The notes beneath the pieces are model-generated. The model made no database searches, was not told the origin of the DNA, and saw only the letters and a program-made list of their open reading frames with translations. Shown piece by piece: positions 1-20,127 of a DNA stretch of 32,946 bases. Each line of letters begins with the position of its first letter. Positions within the stretch are counted from its first letter, which is position 1. The stretch is taken from positions 1-32,946 of the forward strand of contig JAMOTN010000046.1 of NCBI GenBank assembly GCA_027062325.1. Direction: 5' to 3'. Position numbers and translations under genes: made by a program. This stretch comes from a bacterium. GTDB lineage: Bacteria > JAMOTN01.

Positions 1-2
1 CA

Positions 3-458
3 TCTCCATTAATTGAAGAAAAGAATATTGATGAGGTAAACTTTGGCTATCGCAGAGGACTTTCTGAAGTTTTTGATGGTGTAATTCTTGCAGTATATCT
101 TTCGCTGAACAGCTTCTCAAGAGGAGATTATGAGGTAATAAAAGAAAGAATTTTTGAAGCAGCCCAAGTTAGAAGAAAACAACCAACTTTGCCTAGTGCA
201 GGATGTTTCTACAAGAATCCTAGAAAAAATTTATCAGCTGGTTATTTAATAGATAAAGCGGGTTTGAAAGGGATTAAAGTTGGTGGTGCTGCAGTATCCA
301 TAGTACATGCCAATTTTTTTGTTAATACTGGAAGGGCTACTTATAAAGATTTTGTGGAACTTGACTATGTGGTCAGGGAACGCGTGTTGCAAAGGTTTGG
401 AATTGCTTTAGAGAGAGAGGTAAGAATTTACGACAACTATGGACAGATTTTGAATTGA
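3..458 (+). CDS. murB: UDP-N-acetylenolpyruvoylglucosamine reductase, 5'-truncated by window edge
   Basis: The frame of ORF 189..458 is open back to base 3 (SPLIEEKNIDEVNFGYRRG...RRKQPTLPSAGCFYKNP). MurB motifs FGYR, KQP..SAGxxxKNP, AGYLIDKAGLKG, HANFFVN, LEREV. Lies upstream of ddl-ftsQAZ. Confidence 0.95.
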   Translation, partial: SPLIEEKNIDEVNFGYRRGLSEVFDGVILAVYLSLNSFSRGDYEVIKERIFEAAQVRRKQPTLPSAGCFYKNPRKNLSAGYLIDKAGLKGIKVGGAAVSIVHANFFVNTGRATYKDFVELDYVVRERVLQRFGIALEREVRIYDNYGQILN

Positions 459-459
459 A

Positions 460-1479
460 GTGTGGGGTGTGGAGAGGGTGAATTTTGAAGAAAAGATAAA
501 AAAGGCACACAGCGCTTTGAAAAGGATAAAAAAAGTATGTGTGCTTGGTGGCGGAGAATCTTCAGAGAGGCCTATATCTCTTAAGACTTCAGAAGCTGTG
601 ATGAAAGCTCTTAGAAATTTAGGTTTTAAAGTTGAGTTTGCTGATTTTTCTTCCCAAAATGACGAGTGGAAAAAGTTGGTAAGAACTAGTGATGTTGTTT
701 TTAACTGTCTTCACGGTGGAGATGGAGAAAACGGTAAAGTTCAGGCGTGGCTTGAGATTGAAGGGATTCCATTTACCGCTTCGGGTTACTATGCTTCTTA
801 TCTTGCAATGGATAAGCCTCTTTTGAAGAAATATATAGCCTCTCTTAAAGGTTTAAAAGTTACTAAGATTTTACCGGATAAAGTGTTTTGGTTATCAGGG
901 TTTGAGGATGAAGAAAGCGTTTTTTCTGAAGTACTTGATATTGAAAAAAAGTGGGGACGTGCTGTTTTAAAGCCGGCTGATGAAGGATCTAGTGTTGGAT
1001 TGTTTGTTTCTCCTCTTGAAAAGTATCAAAAGGAAATAATTAATATGTTGCGTGAGGGTAAAAAGTTGATGGTTGAGCCGTTTGTTAAAGGGGTTGATTT
1101 TACAGTTGGTTATGTTGCGGGGCTCTTGCCACCTATACGAATTGAGTGTGGAAAGGATAACGTTTTTGATTGGGATGCAAAATACGTTAAAAGTTCCACA
1201 ATTTACAAAGTTTTAGATTATAAAGGATACGAAGAACTTTTAGAAGATATAGAGTTGATGATAAAAGCGTTTAAATTTAAAAGTGCCTTCAGAGTTGATT
1301 ATAGGTTTAATCCTGAGGCTGGTGAGTATTACTTGTTAGAAATTAATACTGTTCCCGGAATGACAGAGCGGAGTTTGATTCCAAAGGCAGCTTATAAACT
1401 CGGGCTTTCTTTTGAGGATGTTGTGGGCTTGATTCTTTGGGAAGCGATTTCTTTTAAAGCAACTGGCCAAAATACTTAA
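460..1479 (+). CDS. ddl: D-alanine--D-alanine ligase
   Basis: GGESSERPISLKT, LHGGDGENGKVQ, MDK, KPADEGSSVG, AKY, EINTVPGMTERSLIP motifs. The start may instead be GTG at 478, after GGAGAG. Confidence 0.95.
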   Translation: MWGVERVNFEEKIKKAHSALKRIKKVCVLGGGESSERPISLKTSEAVMKALRNLGFKVEFADFSSQNDEWKKLVRTSDVVFNCLHGGDGENGKVQAWLEIEGIPFTASGYYASYLAMDKPLLKKYIASLKGLKVTKILPDKVFWLSGFEDEESVFSEVLDIEKKWGRAVLKPADEGSSVGLFVSPLEKYQKEIINMLREGKKLMVEPFVKGVDFTVGYVAGLLPPIRIECGKDNVFDWDAKYVKSSTIYKVLDYKGYEELLEDIELMIKAFKFKSAFRVDYRFNPEAGEYYLLEINTVPGMTERSLIPKAAYKLGLSFEDVVGLILWEAISFKATGQNT

Positions 1480-1560
1480 AAAAAATGCTTGTGCTAAAAA
1501 TTGTCATTTGACATTGTATAACTATTTATCGTAAAAAGTGATGGTGTTAACGATTAAATT

Positions 1561-1589
1561 TTGATAGTGGAGGGCTTGGTTGTTATAAT
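1561..1589 (+). promoter_or_regulatory. sigma-70-type promoter upstream of ftsQ
   Basis: TTGATA (1561-1566), 17-bp spacer, extended -10 TGtTATAAT (1581-1589). Confidence 0.75.
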
Positions 1590-1603
1590 CTCAATAAGTT
1601 GCT

Positions 1604-2230
1604 ATGGGTAGGATAGGCATTTTTGTGTTTTTCGTGTTGTTGACGGCGTGGATGATGTGGTGGATTTGGGAGGAAAGTGGAGTGTTCAGAATAATTGACG
1701 TCAAAGTTGTGGCGTCGTCTGATGATGTTGAGCAGTATGTAGCAGAGGTTGTTGAGAGAGTTAGGGGAAAGCATTTTGTAAATTTAAATTTTAAGAGGTT
1801 GAGGGGTGATATTCTCTCTAATAGTAGAGCAAAGGACGTGAAGTTTTTATTGAAATTGCCGGGGGAATTAGTGGTAAAGGTGTTTGAAAGAAGGCCATAT
1901 TACTGTGTAGTATCTGATGAGGTTTATGTAGCAGATAGCGATGGAGTTATTTATAAGGTTTGGGAAGGGGAAAAGTGCCGTGTAATAGTGGCAGGGAGAT
2001 GGAGTAAGTATGAGAAAGAGCAGGTTGATCAGATGTTGAAGAGAGTTAATACAATTGATGGCATATACTTTGGAGATGAGGTTAAGGTCTATATAGGGAA
2101 TACAGAGGTGGTATTTGATCCGGGTATAACTGGTGAGAAGATAGATTTTGTAAAGGACGTGGTAGAGATTTTGAAGCCTAAGAAGGTAGATGCACGTTAC
2201 AACGGACTCAAGGTTGCTGTAGTAAAGTAA
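1604..2230 (+). CDS. ftsQ: cell division protein FtsQ/DivIB family
   Basis: Single N-terminal TM helix, POTRA-like segment ending LPGELVVKVFERRP, C-terminal KVDARY (DLR-like). Position between ddl and ftsA. Confidence 0.8.
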   Translation: MGRIGIFVFFVLLTAWMMWWIWEESGVFRIIDVKVVASSDDVEQYVAEVVERVRGKHFVNLNFKRLRGDILSNSRAKDVKFLLKLPGELVVKVFERRPYYCVVSDEVYVADSDGVIYKVWEGEKCRVIVAGRWSKYEKEQVDQMLKRVNTIDGIYFGDEVKVYIGNTEVVFDPGITGEKIDFVKDVVEILKPKKVDARYNGLKVAVVK

Positions 2231-2266
2231 CTGGCTTTACGTTAAAGGGAGGGGTGAATAACCTTA

Positions 2267-3493
2267 ATGGAAGAGATAGTAGTGGGGCTTGATGTTGGAA
2301 CAACAAAGGTTTGTGCTTTGATTGGAGAAGTAAAAGGAGAAGTTGTAAACATACTTGGTGTTGGTGAAGCACCTTCAAAAGGTTTGAGAAAAGGTGTAAT
2401 AGTTGATTTAGATGCTACTGTGAAGTCGATAGAGCATGCCATAGTGGAAGCGGAAAAGAGTGCAGACAGAGAGATAAGTGAGGTTTACGTTGGGATTGCA
2501 AGTTCTTACATCAAGTCGTTTAATTCTCATGGAGCAATTACATTAGCTGCAGAGCCAATAGAAATAACAGTTCAGGACAGAGATAAAGTTATAGAGACTG
2601 CTAAAGGTGCTGCGTTGATGCAAAATGTTGAAGTTATTCACGTTATTCCTTGGCAATACAAAGTTGATGGGCAGTCCCAGATAAAAGATCCAGTTGGAAT
2701 GTACGGCTCAAGATTAGAAGTTGATGTTCATATAGTTACTGCTGCGGTTTCTGCCGTAAAAAATTTGATAAAAGCAGTAGATCAGGCAGGAATTGCAGTT
2801 ACTGATATAGTGTTGCAACCTATTGCTAGCGGAGAGGCAGTTTTAACTGAAGATGAAAAAGATTTTGGAGTTGCACTTATAGATATAGGTGGTGGAACGA
2901 CTGATATTTCGATATTTTATCAGGGTAGTGTTGTTTACTCGAAGGTGATTCCTCTTGGAGGTAGTCATATTACAAGCGATATAGCTATAATTTTTAGAAC
3001 GTTGATGAAAGAGGCAGAAATGATAAAGAAAAAGTATGGTTCAGTTCTTCCCAATGAAGTGCCTGAAGATGAGGAAATAGAGATGAGAATAGCAGGATCT
3101 GATGAGGTGAAGAAGGTTAAACTTAGGGAAGTGTGTGAGGTTATAAGGGAGAGAATGATAGATATATTCACCAGAGTTGATGCTTCTTTGAAAGAAAGTG
3201 GTTTCTATGATAAGTTGAATGCTACGGGGATAGTATTGACAGGGGGGACTTCGCTGTTGCGAGGAAGCGTTAGAATGGCGGAGGAATTTTTTGGAGGGCT
3301 TCCTGTTCGTATTGGAAAGCCGAGAAATTTGGGTGGTTTGGCAGAAAGAGTTGATAGTCCCATATATGCTACTGCGGTTGGATTGTTAAGATATGGGGCG
3401 AAACATATAAGTGCTGTATCTAGTACAGAAAAAGATTGGTTGGCTTACATTGTGGATAGAATAAGGGAATTTTTCAAGAGTATAAAAATATAG
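2267..3493 (+). CDS. ftsA: cell division protein FtsA
   Basis: GLDVGTTKV, GLRKGVIVD, IDIGGGTTD, VLTGGTS, YATAVGLL, C-terminal amphipathic helix. RBS GGAGGGG. Confidence 0.97.
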   Translation: MEEIVVGLDVGTTKVCALIGEVKGEVVNILGVGEAPSKGLRKGVIVDLDATVKSIEHAIVEAEKSADREISEVYVGIASSYIKSFNSHGAITLAAEPIEITVQDRDKVIETAKGAALMQNVEVIHVIPWQYKVDGQSQIKDPVGMYGSRLEVDVHIVTAAVSAVKNLIKAVDQAGIAVTDIVLQPIASGEAVLTEDEKDFGVALIDIGGGTTDISIFYQGSVVYSKVIPLGGSHITSDIAIIFRTLMKEAEMIKKKYGSVLPNEVPEDEEIEMRIAGSDEVKKVKLREVCEVIRERMIDIFTRVDASLKESGFYDKLNATGIVLTGGTSLLRGSVRMAEEFFGGLPVRIGKPRNLGGLAERVDSPIYATAVGLLRYGAKHISAVSSTEKDWLAYIVDRIREFFKSIKI

Positions 3494-3527
3494 GGTGAAA
3501 GATAAATAGAGAAGGAGGGAGAAGGGG

Positions 3528-4592
3528 ATGGACTTTTCTTATCCCTTTAAAATGGATCTACCAGATATGCCATTTGGTTACGATGAATTTAATACTCGTA
3601 TCCGCATAAAAGTGGTAGGAGTTGGAGGCGCTGGTGGAAATGCGGTAAGTCGCATGATTGAAAAGGATCTAAAAGGAGTGGAGTTCATAGCTGTGAATAC
3701 AGATGGACAAGCATTAAAAAGCTGTCCTGCTCCAGAAAAAATTACCATTGGTGCAGATTTGACCAAAGGTTTGGGAGCTGGAGCGAATGTTGAGGTTGGA
3801 AGGGAGGCTGCTTTACAGTCTTATGAGGAGATAGAAAGAGTTTTAGAAGGGGCAGATATGATATTTATCACTGCTGGAATGGGAGGCGGAACTGGGACGG
3901 GTGCATCTCCCGTTGTGGCAGAGATTGCTAAAAAACTGGGCGTTTTAACAATAGCTGTTGTTACGATGCCCTTTTCTTTTGAAGGCCGTATAAGAATGCG
4001 TCAGGCTCAAGAAGGTTTAAAGCGCCTTCAGGAAGTTGTGGATACGCTGATCATAGTTATGAACGATAGGTTGATAAACATAGTTGATAAGAATACGCCT
4101 TTTGTGGAGGCATTTCGTATAGCTGACGATGTGCTTTATCACGGAATAAGGGGTATAACAGATTTGATAACTGTTCCAATGAATGGAATAAACGTTGATT
4201 TTGCTGATCTTAAGGCTGTTATGAGCCACGGTGGTTTTGCACTTATGGGGATAGGAGAGGATTACGGTGCTGCTGCTGCGGTTAACGCTGTGAGGCGCGC
4301 AATGGAAAATCCTCTTGTAAATGCCACTGTTGATGGAGCAAAGGGCTTGATAGTAAGCTTCTTTGGTGGTTCTGAAATGGGAATACATGAGATAAATGAG
4401 GCTTCAGGTGAGGTTGTAAGAAGAATAGATCCGGATGCAGAAGTTATATTTGGTTTCCATACAGATCCAGCTCTTGGCGATAGAGTAAAGGTTATACTCA
4501 TTGCCACAGGTGTTAGGATAGGAAAGGAGTTTCCAAGTGCAGGTGGGAGCTTTTCAGGGAAAAAAGAGATGGTATTTGCAGGGGGGAAGTAG
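3528..4592 (+). CDS. ftsZ: cell division GTPase FtsZ, paralog 1 (short C-terminus)
   Basis: [22 protein letters not shown], tubulin signature [24 protein letters not shown]. Only 26 aa after the core. RBS AAGGAGG. Confidence 0.96.
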
Positions 4593-4595
4593 GGG

Positions 4596-5864
4596 ATGTT
4601 TGAATTCGAAATTCCGGTACAGGCAAAAGGTGCTGATATAAGGGTAATAGGGGTTGGAGGAGCAGGTTGCAACGCTGTTAATCGAATGATAGAAGTTGGT
4701 TTACAGGGAGTTGAATTTATAGCTGTTAATACGGATGCTCAAGCCCTTGCAAATTCAAGAGCTAAAATAAAGGTGCAGATAGGGGAAAAAGTTGCAAAGG
4801 GGCTTGGCGCTGGTGGAGATATGAATGTGGGGCGCCAAGCGGCGGAAGAAGATCGTGAAAAGCTTGAGGAGATTGTCAAGGGAGCAGATATGATATTTAT
4901 AACTGCTGGAATGGGAGGCGGAACGGGAACAGGAGCTTCCCCTGTAATAGCAGAGATAGCGAGGGACAAGGGGATATTGACTGTTGCAATAGTGACAAAA
5001 CCTTTTATGTTTGAAGGAAGAAGGAGAATGCAGCAGGCAATTGTGGGAATTCAGCAGATAAAAGATAGAGTTGATACATTGATTGTGATTCCAAATCAGA
5101 AATTACTTGAAATTTCGGATACAGAGATGTCTATTGTTGAAGCTTTTAAAAAGGCTGATGATGTCTTAAGACAAGGTGTTCAGGGGATAAGTGAGATAAT
5201 AGTTAAACCAGGAGTCATAAACGTTGACTTTGCTGATGTAAGAACAATTATGAGAGATGCAGGTAGCGCAATAATGGGAATAGGAGAAGCTACTGGAGAA
5301 AACAGAGCTGTTATGGCTGCAGAGGCTGCTATAAACAATCCTTTACTTGAGGCTGGTATTCAAGGAGCCAAGGGAATATTGGTCAACATTGTTGGGTCTT
5401 CTGCTATTACTCTTCATGAGGTATATCAGGCTTGTGAAGTTATCCAACAGGCAGCTGATGAGGATGCAAATATAATATTTGGTGCAGTTATCGACGATGA
5501 GATGAAGGATACGTTTAGGATAACTGTTATTGCAACAGGTTTTGATAAGAAAAAGAGTGATGCCATTGCTGGGGGAATGGGCACAGGAATACCATCTGGT
5601 AGGATGACAGCGAGAGATTTGCTGAAAATGATGGGGAAAACTCCAGCTTCTCAGCATTCTTCAACCCAACCTTCGCAGCCTACTCCGGTAAATTCTTCAC
5701 CGAGGGAAGAAGGAAGTATGTCACCTAGCCAGTCACCGGAGGTAGCTCAGGAGGAGAAGAAAAATATAAATTTACCTGATGATGTTTTTATAGAGACAGA
5801 GGAAGATCTTCCACCAAGGTTAAGAGGAAGAGATAAGGATTGGAATCCGTTTGGGGGAAGATAA
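4596..5864 (+). CDS. ftsZ: cell division GTPase FtsZ, paralog 2 (long linker, C-terminal peptide)
   Basis: IRVIGVGGAGCNAV, NTDAQAL, GGGTGTG, PGVINVDFAD, IATGF, S/P/Q-rich linker, EDLPPRLR resembling the D(I/V)PxFLR peptide. Confidence 0.97.
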   Translation: MFEFEIPVQAKGADIRVIGVGGAGCNAVNRMIEVGLQGVEFIAVNTDAQALANSRAKIKVQIGEKVAKGLGAGGDMNVGRQAAEEDREKLEEIVKGADMIFITAGMGGGTGTGASPVIAEIARDKGILTVAIVTKPFMFEGRRRMQQAIVGIQQIKDRVDTLIVIPNQKLLEISDTEMSIVEAFKKADDVLRQGVQGISEIIVKPGVINVDFADVRTIMRDAGSAIMGIGEATGENRAVMAAEAAINNPLLEAGIQGAKGILVNIVGSSAITLHEVYQACEVIQQAADEDANIIFGAVIDDEMKDTFRITVIATGFDKKKSDAIAGGMGTGIPSGRMTARDLLKMMGKTPASQHSSTQPSQPTPVNSSPREEGSMSPSQSPEVAQEEKKNINLPDDVFIETEEDLPPRLRGRDKDWNPFGGR

Positions 5865-5866
5865 AA

Positions 5867-6958
5867 GTGAGAAGAGTTTTGATTTGGGTTGTAGGGCTGG
5901 GCATTTTGTTTGGTTGGTTTAATGTTGTAGTTCACGCGAAAAAGATAGATTTTGATGAGTGGAGTTTTCTAAACATAAAGAGTGCGGGACGTGGTGGGTG
6001 TTATCTTACGTTTTACTCCGATAAAGATACCGCGTATTATAATCCTGCACTGCTGCACTATTATTCTTCTCACCTAGATTTTGGGGCATCTGCTCTTCTG
6101 GAGGGAAATGATGATTTGAGTGATGGTTGGGATTTGATAAATGATTTAGAGGATATATACGATGCTTATAGGGGAAGTGTGTTGCTTTCAGAAAAGATCA
6201 GAGAGAGATTAGATCAGGCTTTGCAGGATAAGCTTAGTCCTTATATCTCCTTTGGAGCAAATGGGGCAATTTTTACCAAAAAGATGCTTGCTTTAGGTGG
6301 AATGGGGCAGTTTATTGTATCGCTTGGTTTGACTGGAACATCTGTGGATCCTCATCTCAAGATCAACGCTTACAGTTCTAAAGTTTTTTACGTTTCAGTT
6401 CCTTTGAAGAGAAGAGTTTTTAATAAAAGGTTTAAGGTTGGAATAACACTTAAAAAGGTTGAGGCAGGAAGCGTTTCACTTGATTGGAATGCCAATACTG
6501 TAGCAAACAACAGTGATGACTTATTGGATTCCATAGATGATGAAATAAAAGAAGATTCGTCGGTCATGGCAGATATAGGTATAGCTTACAAAAATAGAGC
6601 TGGAATATTCATGGCGGCAGTTTTGAGAAATATAGGGAAAGTAGAGATGGCAGGAGGAAAAGAGATAGGGACTACTTTGGATATAGGAATTCGTAAGAAA
6701 GTTGGGTTGTTCACATTGGGTGTGGAGATTCACGATATAGGTACAAATTCAGATTTTTCGGACAAGCTGAAGATAGGTGTTGAGACGAGTAAAATTCCCT
6801 TTGTTGGAGTTTTGAGAGCAGGCTATAACAACAGTGGAGCAACATTTGGATTATCCACACGTCTGTTTATATTTAACTTTGATTTTGCTGTATATAAGAG
6901 AAAAATGTTTGAAGATACAGATGTGGTGTACTCGGCTAGTTTGAGTTTGAGATTTTAA
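5867..6958 (+). CDS. outer-membrane beta-barrel protein, FadL/TraF/PorV-like
   Basis: GTG at 5867 (in frame with the 5840 ORF) gives signal peptide MRRVLIWVVGLGILFGWFNVVVHA. AYYNPALL motif, alternating beta-strands, C-terminal YSASLSLRF ending in Phe. Confidence 0.65.
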   Translation: MRRVLIWVVGLGILFGWFNVVVHAKKIDFDEWSFLNIKSAGRGGCYLTFYSDKDTAYYNPALLHYYSSHLDFGASALLEGNDDLSDGWDLINDLEDIYDAYRGSVLLSEKIRERLDQALQDKLSPYISFGANGAIFTKKMLALGGMGQFIVSLGLTGTSVDPHLKINAYSSKVFYVSVPLKRRVFNKRFKVGITLKKVEAGSVSLDWNANTVANNSDDLLDSIDDEIKEDSSVMADIGIAYKNRAGIFMAAVLRNIGKVEMAGGKEIGTTLDIGIRKKVGLFTLGVEIHDIGTNSDFSDKLKIGVETSKIPFVGVLRAGYNNSGATFGLSTRLFIFNFDFAVYKRKMFEDTDVVYSASLSLRF

Positions 6959-6970
6959 GGTTAGTATGAT
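6941..6970 (+). promoter_or_regulatory. probable sigma-70 promoter for rpsO
   Basis: TTGAGT (6941-6946), 18 bp, TATGAT (6965-6970). Confidence 0.45.
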
Positions 6971-6982
6971 AAGATTTAAAAA

Positions 6983-7045
6983 CCAGGGAGTAATCATTCT
7001 CTTAAATTACCCACAAGAAGGCTTATGGCTTTCTTGTGAGGCGAA
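6983..7045 (+). promoter_or_regulatory. structured rpsO 5' leader (candidate S15 autoregulatory leader)
   Basis: Long hairpin CACAAGAAGGC...GCTTTCTTGTG and a short AGGGAG/TTCTCT stem directly upstream of the rpsO RBS. Confidence 0.5.
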
Positions 7046-7058
7046 GGGGGGATAAGTT

Positions 7059-7328
7059 ATGTTGTCACGCAAAGAGAAGGCAGAGATCATCAAAAAGTTT
7101 GCACGCCATGAGGGTGACACTGGTTCCAGTGAAGTGCAGATTGCTGTATTGACGGAGAGAATTAAAAGACTTACTGAGCATTTAAAACAGCATCCTAAAG
7201 ATTACCACTCTCGTCGTGGGTTGACTCTCATGGTTGGAAAGAGAAAGAGGCTTTTGAGGTATTTGAAGAGGAAAGATTATGATAGTTATGTGAAAGTGAT
7301 AAAAGAGCTTGGAATAAGAGGAGTTTAA
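7059..7328 (+). CDS. rpsO: 30S ribosomal protein S15
   Basis: [38 protein letters not shown]. 89 aa, upstream of pnp. Confidence 0.99.
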
Positions 7329-7344
7329 ATTAGTTGTTAATATT

Positions 7345-7381
7345 AAGGTGGGTAGGATTAATCCTACCCACTTTTCTTTTT
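7345..7381 (+). terminator. intrinsic terminator after rpsO
   Basis: Perfect stem GTGGGTAGGA-ttaa-TCCTACCCAC followed by TTTTCTTTTT. Confidence 0.9.
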
Positions 7382-7440
7382 ATGACTGTTTTTATGTTTC
7401 CCGTGTTAGGTGAAAGAGAATTAGGTAGGAGGGAGATGTT

Positions 7441-9810
7441 ATGGAGTCTGAGGTGAAAAAAGTTAGTGTAGAATTTGCTGGGAAAGAGTTGGTTATAGAA
7501 ACAGGAAAGGTTGCTAAACAAGCAGCTGGTGCGGTTGTGGTTAGTTGGGGAGATAACAAGATACTTGGAACTTTGGTGCTTGGTGGAGAGAGGGATGTGC
7601 CGTTTCTACCGTTAACTGTTGAATTTATGGAGAGAATGGGAGCAACTGGTAGAATACCTGGTGGATTTTTCAAAAGAGAGAGTAAACCAAGTCCTGAGAC
7701 TATTTTGGCTGCAAGGCTTGTTGATAGACCAATTAGGCCTCTATTTCCGGAGGGTTGGAATAGAGAGTTGCAAGTAATTTTGGATCCGTTATCTGTGAAT
7801 ACGGATGATGCAATAATAGATGTATTAGGGGTAATTGCAGCTTCTGCTGCTATAACGATTTCACCTGTACCTTTTGATGGTCCAGTTGCTGCAGTGCGGG
7901 TTGGTTATGTCAATGATGAGGTAGTGTTCAATCCTACTCAAGAACAGCTTGAAGAGAGTAAGCTCAATTTGGTAGTTGCTGCCAAGGAAGATGGAATAGT
8001 TATGGTTGAAGCTGGAGCTAAGGAGTTGCCAGAGGATATAGTTATCGATGCACTTTTAAAGGCTTTTGAATTTTTGAAGCCGGTTGTTGAAGTACAGAAG
8101 AAACTTGCAGAGGTTGCAGGAAAGGAGAAGATAGAATTTCGACCAGAAGAAGATCCAGATTACATAGTTTCAGTTGTGCAAGAACATGCAGACAGAATGA
8201 GAGAGTTGATACTTGAAGCAAAGGGTAAAAAGGATAGGGAAGAGAAGCTTTCTAATTTGAAAGAATTGGTAAAGGAGAAATTACTGGAAGAGGCAGAGGC
8301 TCGTGAAGAAGAGTTGAGTGAGGCTGCGTTTGAAAAGGTGTGGCATGAAGTTGAGAAAAAAGTTGTGAGAAAAATGATATTGGAGGAAGGCGTAAGACCG
8401 GATGGGAGAAAAATGGATGAGATAAGGCCCATAAGCATAGAAGTTAACCTATTACCACGTAGTCATGGATCGTGTTTGTTTACTAGAGGAGAGACGCAGG
8501 CCTTAGCTTCTGTGACATTGGGAACACTTAAGGATGCTCAGATTGTGGATACTATGTTTGGTGATGTTAAGAAAGAGTATTTCATGGTGCACTACAACTT
8601 CCCACCATTTTCTACTGGTGAGGTTAAGCCAATGAGAGGGCCTTCTCGTCGTGAAATAGGGCATGGAAATTTGGCACGGCGGGCATTGGAGGCAGTTATG
8701 CCCTCTATCGAAAAATTTCCCTATACTGTGAGAGTTGTATCAGACATTCTTGAAAGTAATGGATCATCTTCAATGGCTACTGTTTGTGCTGGATGCCTTG
8801 CACTTATGGATGCAGGAGTGCCAATAAACAAGGTTGTTGCTGGAGTTGCGATGGGACTTGTTACGGATGAAGATAAGTCGAATGTGAGAATTTTGACTGA
8901 TATAATGGGAATGGAAGATCATTGTGGAGATATGGACTTTAAGGTAGCTGGGACTGAAGATGGAATAACGGCTCTTCAGATGGATATAAAAATAAGTGGA
9001 GTAAGTTACGAAATATTGAAGAATGCTCTTCAGCAAGCGAAAGAGGCGAGATTGTATATTATTGGACTTATGAAAAAGGTATTAGAAAAACCACGTAGTA
9101 GTTTGAGTGAGCATGCTCCTAAGATTATCACGTATCAACTTGAGAATACCAAACAAGTTGCTGAGTTGATAGGTCCTGGTGGCAAAGTTATAAAGGAAAT
9201 AATAGAAAAGACAGGAGTTGAGATAGAGATAGATGATCAAACGGGGCTTGTGTTCATAATTTCTCAGGATGAGGAAAAGTTGAAAGAGGCTTTAGAGTGG
9301 GTCAAGGCGGTAACGAGTGAGATTGCTGTTGGAGAAGTGTTGAGGGGAAAAGTTACTAAGGTTGTCAACTTTGGAGTGTTTGTAGAGGTGAGGCCTGGTA
9401 AAGAGGGTTTGGTTCACATTTCGCAACTGGATGACAGGAGAATTGTCAACATTGCTGATTTTGTAAAGCCCGGCGATGAGATAGTCGTTAAGGTTGTTGG
9501 AGTGGATAGTATTGGAAGACTTAATCTTTCTAGAAAAGAGGCAATAGCTGATACGGGGCAGGAGGATGATTTGAGTGGCAGGACTGATGGAGTTGTAGCT
9601 TCTCGATTGAGTCCTGCTGGATCCAATGATCATTTTAGTGATCATAGAGATAGGGCTAAGGAAGATAGGCACGATGAAGGGAGAGATATGCATGCAAAAG
9701 CTCCGAGAAATTCGGGACGCTCAGAGCACAGGGAATATCGAGACCACTCTCATCGTACTTCCCATGGTCCAAGAAGAGGAGATAGGCGTCATAAGGGACC
9801 TAGAAGATAA
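7441..9810 (+). CDS. pnp: polyribonucleotide nucleotidyltransferase (PNPase)
   Basis: IPGGFFKRE, RLVDRPIRPLF, FTRGETQ, RREIGHG, ESNGSSSMATVC, DMDFKVAGT, KH (IGPGGK) and S1 domains. Confidence 0.99.
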   Translation: MESEVKKVSVEFAGKELVIETGKVAKQAAGAVVVSWGDNKILGTLVLGGERDVPFLPLTVEFMERMGATGRIPGGFFKRESKPSPETILAARLVDRPIRPLFPEGWNRELQVILDPLSVNTDDAIIDVLGVIAASAAITISPVPFDGPVAAVRVGYVNDEVVFNPTQEQLEESKLNLVVAAKEDGIVMVEAGAKELPEDIVIDALLKAFEFLKPVVEVQKKLAEVAGKEKIEFRPEEDPDYIVSVVQEHADRMRELILEAKGKKDREEKLSNLKELVKEKLLEEAEAREEELSEAAFEKVWHEVEKKVVRKMILEEGVRPDGRKMDEIRPISIEVNLLPRSHGSCLFTRGETQALASVTLGTLKDAQIVDTMFGDVKKEYFMVHYNFPPFSTGEVKPMRGPSRREIGHGNLARRALEAVMPSIEKFPYTVRVVSDILESNGSSSMATVCAGCLALMDAGVPINKVVAGVAMGLVTDEDKSNVRILTDIMGMEDHCGDMDFKVAGTEDGITALQMDIKISGVSYEILKNALQQAKEARLYIIGLMKKVLEKPRSSLSEHAPKIITYQLENTKQVAELIGPGGKVIKEIIEKTGVEIEIDDQTGLVFIISQDEEKLKEALEWVKAVTSEIAVGEVLRGKVTKVVNFGVFVEVRPGKEGLVHISQLDDRRIVNIADFVKPGDEIVVKVVGVDSIGRLNLSRKEAIADTGQEDDLSGRTDGVVASRLSPAGSNDHFSDHRDRAKEDRHDEGRDMHAKAPRNSGRSEHREYRDHSHRTSHGPRRGDRRHKGPRR

Positions 9811-10510
9811 TTTTAAGATAAAAAGGGTTATTTGCGTTGATTGCGATGAGGAAAAGGTTGGCCCCGCTGATGTGTCGGTTTCCAAAGTTTGGATAGGTGA
9901 TGCTGACACGGTTGGCGGGGCCAGCCGCGTTAAAGGCAATTATGATTTAAAGGTGATTTTTTCTGAGGCAAAAGACAAAAGTGATTTTGAGTTGGCACTT
10001 GAAATTGCGCGAAATTTGAGCTACTTTGATTTTGAATCTTCCGAATGGGTAAATAATTTCTTTGTTTTAGGAGCAGTTGGTGGTAGGTTGGATCACGAAA
10101 TGTTCAATTTAGGTGTTGTGTGGAGGTTGTTCACAGGTGATGTTGTGTTAAGGGATAGAGTGAGTTCTAGTAGATTACCTAGCAGTGTGCAGCATTTGAA
10201 AAACTTGCATTTAAGGGTTTCTTTTTTAGGAATTACTGATCGGGGAAGGTGGTATGCTCTATTGTTTTTTGATCAAAAGATTAGTTTTTACCACCGAGGT
10301 ACATTTTCATTCTTGGCTTTGGAAGAGGTATTTGTAAGGATAGATGGGCGATGCAGATGGAGATATGAAGGATACGCTTCCTTTTTTAACAGTTTAACCC
10401 TCAGCAATGAAGCTAGTGGGAGAGTGTATGTATCGGCTCAAAAAGGAGCTATATATGTTGAATTTGATGATAAAAAAGGTTTACTGGAATTTTTAAGAGA
10501 CATTAAATAA
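9764..10510 (+). CDS. thiN: thiamine pyrophosphokinase-like protein (divergent; start uncertain)
   Basis: WIGDADT, KDKSDFELAL, GAVGGRLDH..N, LTLSNE motifs. The ORF is open from 9626; the last in-frame ATG before the domain is 9764, overlapping the end of pnp. Confidence 0.75.
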   Translation: MVQEEEIGVIRDLEDNFKIKRVICVDCDEEKVGPADVSVSKVWIGDADTVGGASRVKGNYDLKVIFSEAKDKSDFELALEIARNLSYFDFESSEWVNNFFVLGAVGGRLDHEMFNLGVVWRLFTGDVVLRDRVSSSRLPSSVQHLKNLHLRVSFLGITDRGRWYALLFFDQKISFYHRGTFSFLALEEVFVRIDGRCRWRYEGYASFFNSLTLSNEASGRVYVSAQKGAIYVEFDDKKGLLEFLRDIK

Positions 10511-12868: not shown

Positions 12869-15100
12869 CTAGACAATGGCAAACAGAGCGTCTAACATGC
12901 TTTGAGTAGTGCTGATTACCTTAGTGGCTGCTACGTATGCTTTTTGATATTTGATCATGTTGGAAAGCTCTTCGTCCAAATTGACTCCACTTACAGCCTC
13001 TCGTTGCTTTTTCAAGGAGTCTAATACGTTTTTTTCTGTATCGTAACGATTTTTGTTTGCTTGGTTTTGGATTCCTATTTTTGCTTCAAAATCTCTGAAA
13101 AACTCTTCGGGTGACATGTTATTAAAGAGCTTTTTCTCTTTCAATTTTATGAGTTTTAGAACATTAGAGTTATCTCCACTGCCTTTGCTGACAAGTTTAC
13201 CCGTTTGATCAAATACTTCTTCGTCAAATCCTGCAGCAGCAATTTTGTTGTAGTCGTCGAGAATGTCTTGAGAGATTGAGACACTTTTTACCGGGTCATT
13301 CCAGTCAATTGAAAAAAAGTTTCTGCCGCTTACCCCGTATAGATCAAAACCTTGAGCATGAATTTTGTTGAATTCTTCTACAAATGTTTTCATAAAATTG
13401 TCAAGATCGTTTTTCAAATCTTCCAAAAGGCCATCTCTTACATCAATTAAGGCTTTGATTTTGCCGCTTCCTGAGAATGAGCGCCATGTTATTGTGGTGG
13501 TACCGGTTGATAGAATTTTCAATGTGGTACCATTGTAATCAACTGTATCTCCCCAAAATTCTATCTCTTCTCCATTAATGTTAACCTTACCGGGAATACC
13601 TTCTTCTATTATTGGAGGTTGGGTTTTTACTTCAGTAGCAGGAATGTTTGAAAGACCAAGTTTATAAAGTAGATCCTCACCACTATCGGATGAAACGAGG
13701 CGAATATCTACCATTTTGAGAGGATCTTTAGAAGAGATTGAAAACATGTAACCATCTTCAGTTTTAATTACTTCGGTTTCTACGTCTGGAACGTTTGAGT
13801 TTATCTCTTTCGCAATATCCTCCAACGTATCATTTACTCCAGCAGTTATTCTTATTATTCTATTGTTGATTTGAAGGACAGCGCCTACTCCAAGATGTTC
13901 TGTTGAACTGTTGATGTTAAATTTTACCTCCCCGCTGGCTCTGGAAAGTAAACCGAGTTTTTCCAAAACGTTGCTGCTTCCACCTTTTAGTTCAATACCT
14001 TCTCCTGTTTTATCTATGAGTTGAATTCTTCCCATAGGAGTGTAGACTGCTTCTACTCCTATGTTTGCATTGTTGATCTTTTTAACAAATTCACTGATAG
14101 TTGCTGTTGGTTCCACATTGAAAACCACACCATTTATAAAAAAAGTTCCGGAGGTAACGTTGTATTGAGAAAGTTGTGCAGTTGATGTAGAAAAATGCTG
14201 TAAACTGGTTATGGTCTCTTCTTTTGGAAGGTTTTCAACTTTTATGGCCATTGAAGGATTATTAACTCCTTCAACAACTGCTACTTCGGGGTTTGAGTTC
14301 CAAGAGCTTCCTTCTACTTTCACACCGTATTTACCATTACCAAAGTCGTATAATTGTACAGGTGTAACTGAGTCTTTTGAAACAATGGTATTACCCCCTA
14401 AGCTGACGATTCCATTTTCCAATCCCTCGGTATCGACAAATTTAACTCCTATGAGTTCTGAAAGTTGTTGAAAGAGACGCTCTCTTTCGTCTAGTAGATC
14501 ATTTTGAAAAGCAGTTTTTGAACTGCTTTTTAAAAGCTCTTTGTTTATTGATGCAATTTTTTGCAGTAGTAAGTTTACCTCAGCTGTGTAATCTTGAATG
14601 TGTAAATTGGCTTCATTCTGTATATCTTCGATTCTGGAATATATGTGTTTTACAGTGTTTAAGAATTGTTCTGCTTTTTCTACAACTGCTGCGCGTGTGG
14701 CTGAATCTTGAGGATTAACTGACAAATCCTGCATTGCTTTCCAAAATTCAAGCCATGAGTCCTGCATTGATGCTTGGGGATTTTCAAATATTCTTTCTAC
14801 TTTTTCAACAATATCTTGGGCAGCTTCCCAATATCCGGTATTTGCAAACTGATCTCTAAGTTGTCCGTCTAGATAACGATTGTTAACTCTTTCTATATCA
14901 ACTAAATCAACGCCAAGACCGGGGGGATTTTTAAATCCTTCTGTTGGAGTGGCTGGTCTTGTCAAAGAAAGTGCATTTAAAACTACTCTTTGGCGAGTAT
15001 AGCCTTCGACTCCTACATTGGCAATGTTATGAGATATAACTTCAAGAGCAGCTTTGGCAGCATTTAGTGCTGTTTTAGATATGCCTAGTGATTGTAACAA
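12869..15100 (-). CDS. flgK: flagellar hook-associated protein 1 (extended)
   Basis: SHNIANVGVEGYTRQRV, NDLLDERE, VSGVNLDEELSNMIKYQKAYVA. TTG start with G-rich RBS. Confidence 0.95.
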   Translation of the reverse strand: MLQSLGISKTALNAAKAALEVISHNIANVGVEGYTRQRVVLNALSLTRPATPTEGFKNPPGLGVDLVDIERVNNRYLDGQLRDQFANTGYWEAAQDIVEKVERIFENPQASMQDSWLEFWKAMQDLSVNPQDSATRAAVVEKAEQFLNTVKHIYSRIEDIQNEANLHIQDYTAEVNLLLQKIASINKELLKSSSKTAFQNDLLDERERLFQQLSELIGVKFVDTEGLENGIVSLGGNTIVSKDSVTPVQLYDFGNGKYGVKVEGSSWNSNPEVAVVEGVNNPSMAIKVENLPKEETITSLQHFSTSTAQLSQYNVTSGTFFINGVVFNVEPTATISEFVKKINNANIGVEAVYTPMGRIQLIDKTGEGIELKGGSSNVLEKLGLLSRASGEVKFNINSSTEHLGVGAVLQINNRIIRITAGVNDTLEDIAKEINSNVPDVETEVIKTEDGYMFSISSKDPLKMVDIRLVSSDSGEDLLYKLGLSNIPATEVKTQPPIIEEGIPGKVNINGEEIEFWGDTVDYNGTTLKILSTGTTTITWRSFSGSGKIKALIDVRDGLLEDLKNDLDNFMKTFVEEFNKIHAQGFDLYGVSGRNFFSIDWNDPVKSVSISQDILDDYNKIAAAGFDEEVFDQTGKLVSKGSGDNSNVLKLIKLKEKKLFNNMSPEEFFRDFEAKIGIQNQANKNRYDTEKNVLDSLKKQREAVSGVNLDEELSNMIKYQKAYVAATKVISTTQSMLDALFAIV

Positions 15101-15122
15101 AGTGATTCACCCCCCCTTTAAT

Positions 15123-15149
15123 TTTTCGGTAAAATTAAGGAAAGATGAA
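15123..15149 (-). promoter_or_regulatory. possible sigma-28 (FliA) promoter for flgKL
   Basis: Minus strand TTCA-N15-ACCGAAAA versus consensus TAAA-N15-GCCGATAA. Correct spacing, imperfect boxes. Confidence 0.35.
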
Positions 15150-15191
15150 CTATTAAAATAGATACTAAAAATAGATGTAATATGGAGTAAA

Positions 15192-16361
15192 ATGCGTAAT
15201 ATGAAAAGGATTGTGCTTGAGCTACTTTTCTTACTGTTTTTATTTGCTTATTGTAGGATTACCTATCTAGAGTCGCAAGTTATAAGTTTTGATGATTTAA
15301 TTTTGAGAGAGTACGTTGAATGTTTGTTTCCAAATAAGTGTGATATATCTAGGTATGGAATTGTGAATAGGCAAGTGTTTGAAGTTTTTTTAGATAAGAT
15401 AGAGACTACAGCTAATACAATCTTCTCAAAGATAGAGAAGACAAGGATTTACGAGGAAAATTTTCTTGCTACTGTTGGTTTTATAAAAGACTTGATTAAA
15501 GAATATGATTACGATCCAGTATCTATATGGATTTTGCTCGGACAAGTTAAAAAAGATTTTTTGAAAATTCTTCACTACGTTTCTCAAAAGAGAAGAATAT
15601 TACTGGGGTTTTATGCGTTATTGTCTCTGCCTTTATCTCCTTCTGATTATTCAACTAAAGTTGGTTTTTATCTGAATGTTTCTGGAGATAAGTTTATGCG
15701 ACTTCTGTATCCGTGCCGTGTAAAGTGGGAAGAAAAACTGATAAAAAGTTATTTTAATCCTGATATAGTAATAAAACCTTTATTTTTGGAAGATTTTGAT
15801 CCGAGACGGAGTTATTTTAAAGCGTGGTACTGGTTGAAGCCGTCAGTTTTGTATGAGAGCTATTCATTTAGCGATTGGCAATTTATTAAAACTATGGAAG
15901 AATTTTTAAAAGGTCATGAAGAATTGAGGTTGATTTTAAATCCTTATGAAGTTTATCCTGTTTTTAAAATGAAAATTTTGTCTTTTAAATCTTTTGTAAA
16001 GAAGCTAATAGCTTTATCTAAAAGGAGGTCAAGTTTAATTATTGCTGTTAAGCCGTCTTCTTTTGAAGTGTTTATGAAAGGAGCAAATATAGGATTTGTA
16101 GTGGAAGGAGTTGATGATCTTAATGAATTAAGAAATTTTGTGCTTAAGTACAGTTTAAACAAGTGGGGGTTGGTTTATGTTTGGGACAAGTACGAGTACT
16201 ACCTGGACAATGTGACGATAAGTTTTTTGGAATTGGCGTGGAAGTTTGCAAATATATATGGGGCTAGTTATTTTTGTATAGGAAGGAGTAGTTTCATGTT
16301 TTTTAATAAAAAGCCAACTTACATAGCTAAGAAAGTGAAAGAGGTGATATTCTCTAAATAA
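15192..16361 (+). CDS. hypothetical protein with N-terminal hydrophobic anchor
   Basis: 389-aa ORF with GGAG RBS and a K/R-rich then hydrophobic N-terminus. TAATG coupling to the next gene. Confidence 0.7.
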   Translation: MRNMKRIVLELLFLLFLFAYCRITYLESQVISFDDLILREYVECLFPNKCDISRYGIVNRQVFEVFLDKIETTANTIFSKIEKTRIYEENFLATVGFIKDLIKEYDYDPVSIWILLGQVKKDFLKILHYVSQKRRILLGFYALLSLPLSPSDYSTKVGFYLNVSGDKFMRLLYPCRVKWEEKLIKSYFNPDIVIKPLFLEDFDPRRSYFKAWYWLKPSVLYESYSFSDWQFIKTMEEFLKGHEELRLILNPYEVYPVFKMKILSFKSFVKKLIALSKRRSSLIIAVKPSSFEVFMKGANIGFVVEGVDDLNELRNFVLKYSLNKWGLVYVWDKYEYYLDNVTISFLELAWKFANIYGASYFCIGRSSFMFFNKKPTYIAKKVKEVIFSK

Positions 16362-19096: not shown

Positions 19097-20127
19097 TGAA
19101 GGAAGATTTTAACTTTATCTCTGAGAGTGAAGGGAAGAAGATGAGTTTTATCGAGGTTGTGTTAATAAATACTCTTCATAGATTGAAATTACTTGTTAGG
19201 GAGAAAGAGTATTTATTTCAAGCTTTAGGACTATACTTTTTTATGGCACTTTTGTTTTTCTCGCTTGGCGTATGGGGAACAGTTGTAGAAATTCAGAGTG
19301 GATGGGTTAAAAAGATATATTCACGTTATAGGTCTTACCAAAGATTTGAAGGTGCTAGAGGTGTCTATGAGACGGAAGCCGAATTGGTTATAGGACGTGA
19401 TACTTTCCCCGTAAAAATTGTAGGACGGACGGATCAAAAAAAAGTGTTATTTGGAAGTTATTTTAAAAGGTACAGAAGAGCTAAGGGAATTTTAATTGGT
19501 TTGGATAGAGTGAATGTGAAGTTGGAGCATTTTTTTACAACGGGGTATGAAGATGTAGATAAGTTTATTGTTATTGCTCCAATTGAGTTGGCGTGGAAAA
19601 TAGATATGGCTTCTGGAGTTTACAGTTGGTGGGAATCTGATAAGATACCATCTGCTTTGAGAAACAGTGCGAGGGCAACTGTTGAGGATGTTTATTTTAC
19701 TAAATATGGAGTGGGAAGATTTGAAGTATTGGAGAGTGAGATAGTATCTGTAATAGGTTTTTTGGGAGTTGTGAGTGTTATGTTACTCAGTTATTCTGCT
19801 TCTCTTGGATTGCGCAAGAGATTTGTCAATCTTGATTTGATTTGGAGAGTTAAAAGGGCTAGTTTTTTTTCTTGGAGAAAAATTCCGCAAGTGGCTTGGT
19901 TCACTTTGTTTATGATGACTTATATGGGCATTGTTATTCTGGCTTACTTTACTGCCCAGGGAACAGCTATTTATATATCACAAACAGAGGTGATGAAATA
20001 TTTTAGGGATGTGTATGGAATAAATGAGTTAAGAATTACACTGAGCTTAAATTTTATAATAGCGATAATTTTAGTTATGAGTCTTACTTCGGTTTTAATT
20101 GCTTTTTCTAAAGAAAGGATTTTTTGA
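19096..20127 (+). CDS. degenerate LolE/MacB/FtsX-like ABC permease
   Basis: One TM, a soluble loop (FTTGYEDVDKFIVIAPIELA) and three C-terminal TMs, with VYGINELRI before the last helix, as in LolC/E topology. Confidence 0.5.
   Translation: MKEDFNFISESEGKKMSFIEVVLINTLHRLKLLVREKEYLFQALGLYFFMALLFFSLGVWGTVVEIQSGWVKKIYSRYRSYQRFEGARGVYETEAELVIGRDTFPVKIVGRTDQKKVLFGSYFKRYRRAKGILIGLDRVNVKLEHFFTTGYEDVDKFIVIAPIELAWKIDMASGVYSWWESDKIPSALRNSARATVEDVYFTKYGVGRFEVLESEIVSVIGFLGVVSVMLLSYSASLGLRKRFVNLDLIWRVKRASFFSWRKIPQVAWFTLFMMTYMGIVILAYFTAQGTAIYISQTEVMKYFRDVYGINELRITLSLNFIIAIILVMSLTSVLIAFSKERIF

Follow-up and report, generated by a model that had tools for sequence, protein, structure and literature searches.

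Two complete ftsZ genes, here called ftsZa and ftsZb, stand side by side on contig JAMOTN010000046.1 of the bacterial genome assembly GCA_027062325.1. The window that we analysed is this one whole contig, 32,946 bases long, from a metagenome-assembled genome. Both genes lie 3′ of ftsA at the end of the dcw cluster (genes of division and the cell wall), and the order of genes on the + strand is murB (cut off at the edge of the contig), ddl, an ftsQ-like gene, ftsA, ftsZa, ftsZb, a gene for a probable outer-membrane β-barrel protein, rpsO and pnp (Table 1). After the stop codon of ftsZa, TAG (4590-4592), come GGG and the ATG of ftsZb (4596), so that the gap is 3 bases and the two genes share a frame. 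The first-pass annotation, made from the letters of the contig, had described ftsA as followed by two complete FtsZ open reading frames (ORFs) 3 bp apart, and every detail of that description, coordinates included, was correct. The host genome amounts to 1.65 Mb in 81 contigs, with a completeness of 83.9% and an estimated contamination of 0.21%, and it contains no FtsZ match beyond ftsZa and ftsZb. The sequencing runs that contain the stretch are labelled as hydrothermal vent metagenome. In the GTDB-based set the host phylum holds one genome, and all of the "relatives" available for comparison are graded as "same domain".

Table 1. Features of the ftsZa-ftsZb locus, by position in the window (aa, amino acids; nt, nucleotides).
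Feature	Position	Strand	Basis or remark
Promoter-like site TTGATA-17 nt-TATAAT with TG, upstream of the ftsQ-like gene; candidate operon promoter	1561..1589	+	11/12 matches
ftsQ-like gene, 208 aa, N-terminal membrane helix	1604..2230	+	POTRA_1 E = 0.02, 15.6 bits, under cut-off
ftsA	2267..3493	+	TIGR01174 415.2 bits, cut-off 175.85
GGAGG Shine-Dalgarno	3514..3518	+	9 nt 5′ of ftsZa ATG; read directly
ftsZa (P0001, 354 aa), divergent fast-evolving paralogue, GTP-binding and T7 motifs intact	3528..4592	+	ORF list, Pfam, TIGR00065
ftsZa codons 1-26, N-terminal part ahead of the first β-strand	3528..3605	+	Alignment
ftsZa codon 218 (Met), one-residue insertion at T7-loop entry	4179..4181	+	HMMER alignment to 2vam
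ftsZa codons 330-354, 25-residue tail without linker or FtsA-docking peptide	4515..4589	+	Alignment
GGGGGGAAG in the last ftsZa codons, Shine-Dalgarno-like	4581..4589	+	6 nt 5′ of ftsZb ATG; read directly
ftsZb (P0002, 422 aa), conventional FtsZ with a 106-residue tail (linker and C-terminal peptide)	4596..5864	+	ORF list, Pfam, TIGR00065
ftsZb codons 404-410, C-terminal peptide D-L-P-P-R-L-R, lineage-specific form	5805..5825	+	Alignment
Downstream gene, probable outer-membrane β-barrel protein	5867..6958	+	TraF_2 28 bits; PorV/PorQ 21 bits, under cut-off
First strong terminator-like hairpin, 3′ of rpsO	7345..7374	+	13 pairs, 6 G-C, then T-run

Both proteins are genuine FtsZ. Against the TIGR00065 ftsZ equivalog model, which has a curated cut-off of 295.2 bits, FtsZa scores 397.1 bits and FtsZb 428.6 bits. 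The Tubulin/FtsZ GTPase domain PF00091 and the FtsZ_C domain PF12327 are present in each (E = 4e-52 and 1e-24 in FtsZa; E = 5e-52 and 1e-34 in FtsZb). The motifs that define FtsZ are the GTP-binding signature GGGTGTG and the T7 motif N-x-D-x-x-D, and both are intact in the two proteins, the latter as NVDFAD, just as the first-pass annotation had read them. Its description of the copies as intact and diverged also holds: FtsZa and FtsZb are 49% identical over 338 aligned residues, and at that protein identity synonymous sites between the genes are saturated. The closest solved relative is the FtsZ of Bacillus subtilis (2rhh, 2vam), at 337 bits. When compared with 465 other FtsZ sequences, FtsZa retains all 63 of the columns that are at least 98% conserved, and 85 of the 91 that are at least 95% conserved (the others have a median of 91 and a 5th percentile of 86). 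The G+C content at third codon positions (GC3) is 0.318 in ftsZa, 0.303 in ftsZb, 0.284 in ftsA and 0.329 in pnp. Typical of FtsZ is GTP-dependent polymerisation into filaments, with a ring formed at the division site, which FtsZa and FtsZb may share.

The pair is old. Among 5.8 billion proteins, the best non-self match of FtsZa is P0003 (372 aa, 55% identity) and that of FtsZb is P0122 (372 aa, 62% identity). Both matches are NCBI-only records, each placed on a contig of 252,245 bases, and very likely share that one contig. Phylogenetic analysis of both copies groups copy with copy. The FtsZa-type proteins (P0001, P0003) and the FtsZb-type proteins (P0002, P0122) are joined with support of 100 and 99 in a quick LG+C20 tree of 77 rows (Shimodaira-Hasegawa-like approximate likelihood ratio test, SH-aLRT), and with aLRT support of 99.6 and 99.5 in an IQ-TREE analysis of 50 rows under LG+F+G4. 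The smaller tree omits the long-branch sequences P0276, P0346, P0282, P0297 and P0387, together with some near-duplicates of the 77-row set. Because each copy groups with its counterpart, the duplication must be older than the split of the two genomes, and that split is itself deep, since even the FtsZb orthologues are just 68% identical over the core. There are consequently two conserved paralogue lineages, each with an orthologue in a second genome, and two genomes in all.

The two lineages have evolved at different speeds. In the 50-row tree, tip lengths are 0.87 and 0.90 for the FtsZa proteins as opposed to 0.47 and 0.46 for the FtsZb proteins, so that FtsZa has been about 1.9 times faster in both genomes. 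The FtsZa type is also easily told apart: against a profile of P0001 and P0003 these two members reach 698 and 738 bits, the runner-up 461, and ordinary FtsZ about 437 or less. Among the 8,000 word-richest candidates scored, P0001 and P0003 were the two proteins of this type. An exhaustive search of 50% representatives failed to separate FtsZa-type proteins from other FtsZ, and P0003 itself was not listed there.

One further protein deserves mention beside this pair. P0362 (European Nucleotide Archive, 495 aa, on a contig of 16,414 bases) has eight otherwise rare residues in common with the FtsZa proteins, including N263S, T309I and V310L of the cleft region described below. It bears an N-terminal extension of 54 residues and does not have the insertion at the T7 entry. 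P0362 joins the FtsZa pair in FastTree (0.87), though not in the fast mode of IQ-TREE.

FtsZa departs from conventional FtsZ at its N-terminus, at the entry to the T7 loop and in the interdomain cleft. In one alignment, 26 residues precede the first β-strand of FtsZa and 29 that of P0003, against 14 in FtsZb, 20 in P0122 and 13 in a canonical FtsZ. The Shine-Dalgarno sequence GGAGG, which stands 9 nt before the ATG, indicates that residue 1 is the true start of ftsZa and thus supports the extension; the same region is identical in a contig from the independent run X2. The sequences of the extensions in P0001 and P0003 are poorly conserved. The inserted residue, Met218, sits between the equivalents of B. 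subtilis P204 and G205 in the alignment to 2vam, from which all B. subtilis numbering here is taken. This insertion occurs in P0001 and P0003, is not in P0002 or P0122, and was found in none of the 465 other FtsZ sequences.

Substitutions in FtsZa also cluster. We counted as clade-specific any replacement in a column at least 70% conserved where both orthologues are off the consensus and their residues have frequencies below 5%. By this measure the FtsZa pair has 19 clade-specific replacements and the FtsZb pair six, and at 12 of the 19 the new residue is identical in both FtsZa orthologues. Seven of the 19 fall within a set of 30 residues at the interdomain cleft (Fisher p = 0.006 against conserved columns, and p = 0.001 against all 304 core columns). 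These seven are G205N/S, L206G/V, T265F, A296F/V, V297H, T309I and V310L, and R191Y, N263S and I264F adjoin them. The set comprises the residues listed as lying within 6 Å of the interdomain cleft of Staphylococcus aureus FtsZ (PMC8456036; papers cited here by identifier are represented by those parts of their text that were available). The interdomain cleft is described as the assembly-switch site of FtsZ and the site of drugs such as PC190723 (PMC8456036, PMC5460597).

The tails of the two proteins differ as well. The C-terminal peptide of FtsZ, of the D-I/L-P-x-F-L-R type, follows a flexible linker and docks on FtsA and other partners. FtsZb has a long linker followed by its peptide (Table 1), a variant without the usual aromatic residue, and FtsZa has no such peptide. 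In this genome FtsZa is a truncated paralogue that ends 25 residues past the core. Neither of its termini showed a membrane-binding helix, and its tail holds no segment compatible with an amphipathic helix, the best window of 14 residues containing four Pro or Gly. The C-terminal 14-mer encoded by ftsA does form an amphipathic helix, with a hydrophobic moment of 0.68 and no Pro or Gly. The three tail peptides known for the lineage, DLPPRLR in P0002, DVPPSMR in P0122 and DLPPVFR in P0003, all combine PP with a non-aromatic residue, giving the form D-[LV]-P-P, then R, S or V, then [LMF]-R. That combination occurs in none of 381 other FtsZ tail peptides, 372 of which have an aromatic residue at that place. 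The common PP form would fit a duplication within the lineage, or else both tails co-evolving with the same FtsA, and the pocket of FtsA may have co-evolved with this unusual docking peptide. One FtsA scores over the cut-off in the genome, and it is the only FtsZ membrane anchor detected. For MinD and MreB nothing over the cut-off was found in this 84% complete genome. The divisome toolkit is possibly very small.

Second copies of ftsZ are not very rare in bacteria; adjacent copies are. We surveyed 300 other genomes from about 235 families for FtsZ matches at E ≤ 1e-40. Two matches were present in 21 of these genomes, all of which were inspected, and in none were the copies adjacent. In five of the 21 a single contig carries both copies, separated by 81 kb to 1.3 Mb, and in 14 they are on different contigs. 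In the other two (G082 and G188) two parts of the profile match on different contigs, apparently from a single gene split by assembly. A second, unlinked FtsZ-family match is therefore seen in 19 genomes (G012, G020, G045, G050, G070, G086, G094, G108, G113, G119, G139, G159, G162, G181, G217, G231, G267, G271 and G296), and in three of these (G094, G119 and G231) the second copy has stop codons. Similarly, a search for synteny across 171 other FtsZ loci with flanks found no second FtsZ beside the first. At least 1.5 kb was available on each side in 123 of these loci; many are from Campylobacter and hence not independent.

Published accounts agree with the survey, and with the view of the first-pass annotation that extra bacterial copies are normally unlinked. 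In the available text of PMC9871819, the few bacteria with two ftsZ genes have the extra copy outside the dcw cluster. A second study, as far as its available text goes, describes at least five independent ftsZ duplications, in which the extra genes, most of them truncated, lie outside the dcw operon (10.1101/2025.09.29.679267). The first-pass annotation had supposed that the arrangement might be undescribed. Our literature search found no in-operon bacterial ftsZ pair, although the supplementary lists of duplicates in these two studies could hold tandem cases, and it found no description of a vent or novel-phylum example. Novelty does not extend to the general kind, since division rings with multiple FtsZ proteins are well known. 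The tandem of ftsZa and ftsZb is a real in-operon pair, old and rare and probably maintained by selection.

The junction of the two genes bears on whether they are read from one transcript. The first-pass annotation had called the pair co-transcribed, and what can be kept of this is that co-transcription is plausible, given the 3-base gap, the Shine-Dalgarno-like G-run in the 3′ end of ftsZa and the lack of a terminator-like site between the genes in the hairpin scan. Before the hairpin 3′ of rpsO, the sole + strand hairpin is a weak one of 6 pairs at 4097-4111, within ftsZa. Neither scan was richer in sites than shuffled sequence: 4 terminator-like sites were found and 3.3 expected, and the promoter scan gave 18 sites in all against 17.3 expected, which makes the site upstream of the ftsQ-like gene a hint only. 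The run GGGGGGAAG would be a suitable site for coupled translation of ftsZb. The name ftsQ-like is itself suggested by the place of that gene between ddl and ftsA.

A similar arrangement is repeated at the other end of ftsZb. The downstream ORF was listed from a TTG at 5840, overlapping ftsZb, but an in-frame GTG at 5867 lies 6 nt past GGGGGAAG (5853-5860), inside the 3′ end of ftsZb. Starting at this GTG gives an N-terminus resembling a signal peptide, and the protein ends in ...SLSLRF. GTG 5867 is probably the true start, and the β-barrel gene probably rides on the division operon in the same transcript.

Several other observations concern the same sequence. The two ftsZ genes resemble each other in their last bases (4573-4592 and 5849-5864), each with TTTG, a G-run, AAG and a stop, encoding F-(A)-G-G-K/R, and each containing the Shine-Dalgarno-like run of the gene that follows. 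This likeness could be a trace of the unit that was duplicated, or convergence imposed by the ribosome-binding site. Read-through of the TAG, across 4590-4598, would yield a double FtsZ of 777 residues. Natural single proteins with two tandem FtsZ cores do exist among the 50% representatives (P0239, 840 aa; P0240, 826 aa; P0241, 744 aa). Elsewhere in the window, three abutting + strand ORFs of 389, 911 and 343 aa occupy 15192-20127 (15192-16361, 16361-19096 and 19096-20127). They have no Pfam or NCBIfam match and adjoin FlgK and flagellin/FlgL genes on the opposite strand. In positions 1-10000 and 15000-20000, wherever genes lie on the + strand, G exceeds C there very strongly (GC skew 0.3 to 0.53); where they lie on the opposite strand the skew falls to about zero or below, so that coding strands are markedly rich in purines. 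Neither the Rfam nor the tRNA scan of the window gave a match.

Of the explanations considered here, the most likely is that FtsZa and FtsZb build a two-subunit ring, in which FtsZb is tethered by FtsA and FtsZa co-polymerises with it and alters filament dynamics. To this proposal, which draws on the sequences and on analogy, we give about an even chance. FtsZb would be the conventional scaffold subunit, whose linker and C-terminal peptide dock on FtsA and hold filaments at the membrane. FtsZa, made from the same transcript, would enter the same filaments by co-polymerising with FtsZb and, being without a docking peptide, would thin the FtsA tethers. The bulkier side chains of its cleft and the extra residue at the T7 entry may change the assembly switch, and hence the stability or turnover of filaments. 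The ring would then be a two-subunit polymer, as it is in plastids. Precedents in the FtsZ1/FtsZAT pair of Agrobacterium tumefaciens and in the tail loss of plastid FtsZ make this the most economical reading. The first-pass annotation had likewise pictured a subfunctionalised pair, and this picture is consistent with the conserved pairs of orthologues, the asymmetric rates, the remodelled cleft and the loss of the FtsZa tail.

A bolder version of the two-subunit proposal, which we consider distinctly unlikely, makes the ring obligate in this deep-branching vent bacterium, in whose genome no Min, SepF, ZapA or MreB was found. FtsZb would provide the FtsA tethers, FtsZa would be a self-wedged subunit, and a ratio fixed by the operon would replace accessory regulators. 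F264, F265, F/V296, H297, I309, L310 and the insertion would bias the assembly switch in the manner of cleft-binding drugs. Translational coupling would fix the ratio of subunits and thereby set filament stability and tether density. Occasional read-through of TAG-GGG could even give a covalent FtsZa-FtsZb dimer, like the natural double-FtsZ proteins.

A number of observations weigh against the two-subunit proposal. Neither free tree (77-row or 50-row) joins the FtsZa pair as sister to the FtsZb pair. The nearest neighbour of the FtsZa pair shifts with the method, the backbone is weak and the FtsZa branch is long, and just one rare residue was found to be common to all four proteins. Adjacency has been read in this genome alone, P0003 and P0122 being known as proteins. 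Their contig was not found: the best genome contigs reach 52% identity, 400 relatives gave no match at E ≤ 1e-130, and metagenome contigs searched with two generic patterns reach at best 57% identity among the matches listed. The test of cleft enrichment takes its background from sampled top hits, mostly Bacillota-like, and its residue list from S. aureus FtsZ, and FtsZb has two clade-specific changes in the cleft too. The orthologue P0003 is untruncated and keeps a good docking peptide, D-L-P-P-V-F-R, which means that the FtsZa tail was lost later, in this lineage or genome, and was not the original division of labour. Indeed, the pattern of one tailed paralogue is seen in this genome, and the second genome has a tail peptide in both copies. 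Lastly, SepF, ZapA and MinC_C gave no match, but with a genome 84% complete they are not found rather than proven absent.

Other explanations account for parts of the same evidence. FtsZa might build a filament system of its own, separate from the FtsZb ring and recruited by another partner through its N-terminal extension. Its role could be a distinct step of division, as has been proposed for archaeal FtsZ1 and FtsZ2, or the remodelling of shape or membranes, for which the truncated, magnetosome-linked FtsZ found in Magnetospirillum is an example. We think this, the main rival, somewhat unlikely. All catalytic and near-invariant residues are kept, which suggests that FtsZa could polymerise alone; the clade-specific N-terminal extension is present in both orthologues; changes affect both filament faces as well as the cleft; and FtsZa in this genome has no FtsA-docking peptide. 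There is precedent in the distinct parts reported for archaeal FtsZ1 and FtsZ2 in ring assembly and constriction (10.1101/2020.06.04.133736), and in the truncated Magnetospirillum FtsZ, which division does not require (as cited in 10.1101/412759). However, a place between ftsA and ftsZb with a 3-base gap is the tightest possible link to division, P0003 bears the docking peptide of the FtsZb type and so points to the same partner, the extensions are poorly conserved in sequence, and no candidate partner gene was seen adjoining the pair. It is quite improbable, in our judgement, that the copies are redundant, or that FtsZa is a spare decaying under relaxed selection with no distinct mechanism. 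Its roughly twofold faster evolution, its lost tail and its position in the lower tail of conservation would fit such a history, and redundancy has parallels in Segatella copri, with two functionally redundant FtsZ proteins (10.64898/2026.04.17.719208), and in A. tumefaciens, where deletion of ftsZ1 had no phenotype (10.1101/412759). Decay is hard to reconcile with two FtsZa orthologues that are intact at a divergence where the conservative FtsZb copies are 62-68% identical, and with the full set of near-invariant columns in P0001. Further, the agreement of both orthologues at 12 of the 19 derived sites indicates that the new states are conserved, the changes gather in a single functional region instead of being spread out, and the GC3 of ftsZa is in line with its neighbours ftsZb and ftsA.

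The origin of FtsZa is a separate matter from its mechanism. It could have been acquired horizontally from another lineage and inserted beside the resident ftsZ, which would be compatible with either mechanism, and which we hold to be highly unlikely. The free trees leave room for it by not making the two pairs sisters, the pairs have one or two rare residues in common (196 and 81 of 465 unrelated FtsZ do as well), and the residues and FastTree placement of P0362 could hint at a foreign source. Yet the approximately unbiased (AU) test, applied to 50 rows and 356 columns, does not reject all four proteins as one clade (difference in log-likelihood 4.9, p-AU 0.445), and P0362 falls outside the pair in the fast IQ-TREE run and is without the insertion. 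The PP and non-aromatic tail that P0003 shares with both FtsZb proteins counts against a recent foreign origin, and the common strand, the adjacency, the matching GC3 and the likeness of the genes at their 3′ ends count against transfer; any such event would have to be older than the split of the two known genomes. An artefact of assembly or binning, in which genes of two strains were joined or the contig is chimeric, would undo the finding altogether, as the first-pass annotation had recognised. This is extremely improbable. The genome is admittedly assembled from a metagenome in 81 contigs, and a single contig spanning the whole stretch comes from one run (X1), which matches without a difference and may be the source sample rather than an independent one. 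But copies 49% identical are not strain variants, and in three further studies there are contigs that agree with both genes apart from 0 to 3 differences. Though of low depth, these contigs cover the junctions. One of 566 bases from run X2 (3303-3868, 0 differences) bridges ftsA and ftsZa, and one of 277 bases from run X4 (5775-6051, 0 differences) bridges ftsZb and the downstream gene. Two contigs from run X3 (4440-4603 with 2 differences, and 4574-4685 with none) overlap by 30 bases and tile the junction of ftsZa and ftsZb, neither alone having 31 letters on each side of it. In addition, both exact proteins are recorded on a contig of 375,776 bases, which means that another assembly holds them, the same two paralogue types occur in a second genome, and estimated contamination is low.

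The two-subunit ring, if it exists, belongs to a known kind, the multi-FtsZ division ring. The novelty lies in a pair that is bacterial and linked to ftsA, with a divergent member that has an extended N-terminus and a remodelled cleft. The bacterial Z-ring is taught as a homopolymer of a single FtsZ; plastids and archaea are known to have rings of two FtsZ proteins, and those extra bacterial copies that have been studied to date are unlinked and for the most part truncated. If co-expressed, a conserved pair within this operon would offer an experiment of nature on heteropolymer rings in bacteria, in which the divergent FtsZa has altered just those parts, the interdomain cleft and the T7 entry, that govern the switch to assembly. 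Recombinant proteins would allow the effects of cleft and tail on assembly, treadmilling and FtsA tethering to be tested without culture.

Among prokaryotes, archaea require FtsZ1 as well as FtsZ2 in order to divide normally; the two have distinct roles, and only one is tied to the SepF anchor (10.1101/2020.06.04.133736, 10.1101/2023.03.28.534543). Their duplication predates archaeal diversification, and the genes are described as not adjacent and without dcw or ftsA context (available text of PMC9871819), unlike the pair reported here, which is known from two bacterial genomes only. The pair of S. copri is reported to be redundant and is not described as adjacent after ftsA in the available part of its source (10.64898/2026.04.17.719208), whereas ours differ strongly from each other in rate, in the cleft and in the tail. 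A closer parallel is A. tumefaciens, where a full-length FtsZAT from the dcw operon is accompanied by a paralogue, FtsZ1, without linker and C-terminal peptide. According to the available text, this tail-less FtsZ1 cannot polymerise alone; it forms polymers together with FtsZAT, on which its arrival at mid-cell depends (10.1101/412759). Truncated paralogues of the Hyphomicrobiales show substitution patterns that suggest a modified function, and truncated natural FtsZ paralogues are still classed as FtsZ (10.1101/2025.09.29.679267). These truncated paralogues differ from FtsZa in lying outside the dcw operon. FtsZa lies inside it, between ftsA and ftsZb and upstream of the conventional copy, is N-extended, has the T7-entry insertion, and is untruncated in its orthologue from the second genome.

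The other near likeness is to plastids. Plastid FtsZ1 and FtsZ2 co-polymerise and differ in dynamics (PMC12343686, PMC8142252). In chlorophytes both bind ARC6; the FtsZ1 of land plants no longer does, FtsZ2 has kept the ARC6-binding motif, which is of the bacterial docking type, and the FtsZB of red algae has no C-terminal domain (PMC11285052, available text). As with FtsZ1/FtsZ2 and FtsZA/FtsZB, there are here two conserved paralogue lineages from one duplication, with a tail later lost in one: the FtsZa of the relative, P0003, is tailed, and that of this genome is tail-less. The plastid proteins differ in being encoded by eukaryotic nuclear genes of cyanobacterial descent and in working with ARC6 and PARC6, whereas here the two genes adjoin within the ftsA operon of a bacterium, and the sole anchor found is FtsA. 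The comparison is therefore between systems that may work alike after independent duplications, and heteropolymers are proposed here by analogy. On this comparison, a second, independent lineage would have followed a plastid-like path, from duplication through a state with both copies tailed to the later loss of one tail.

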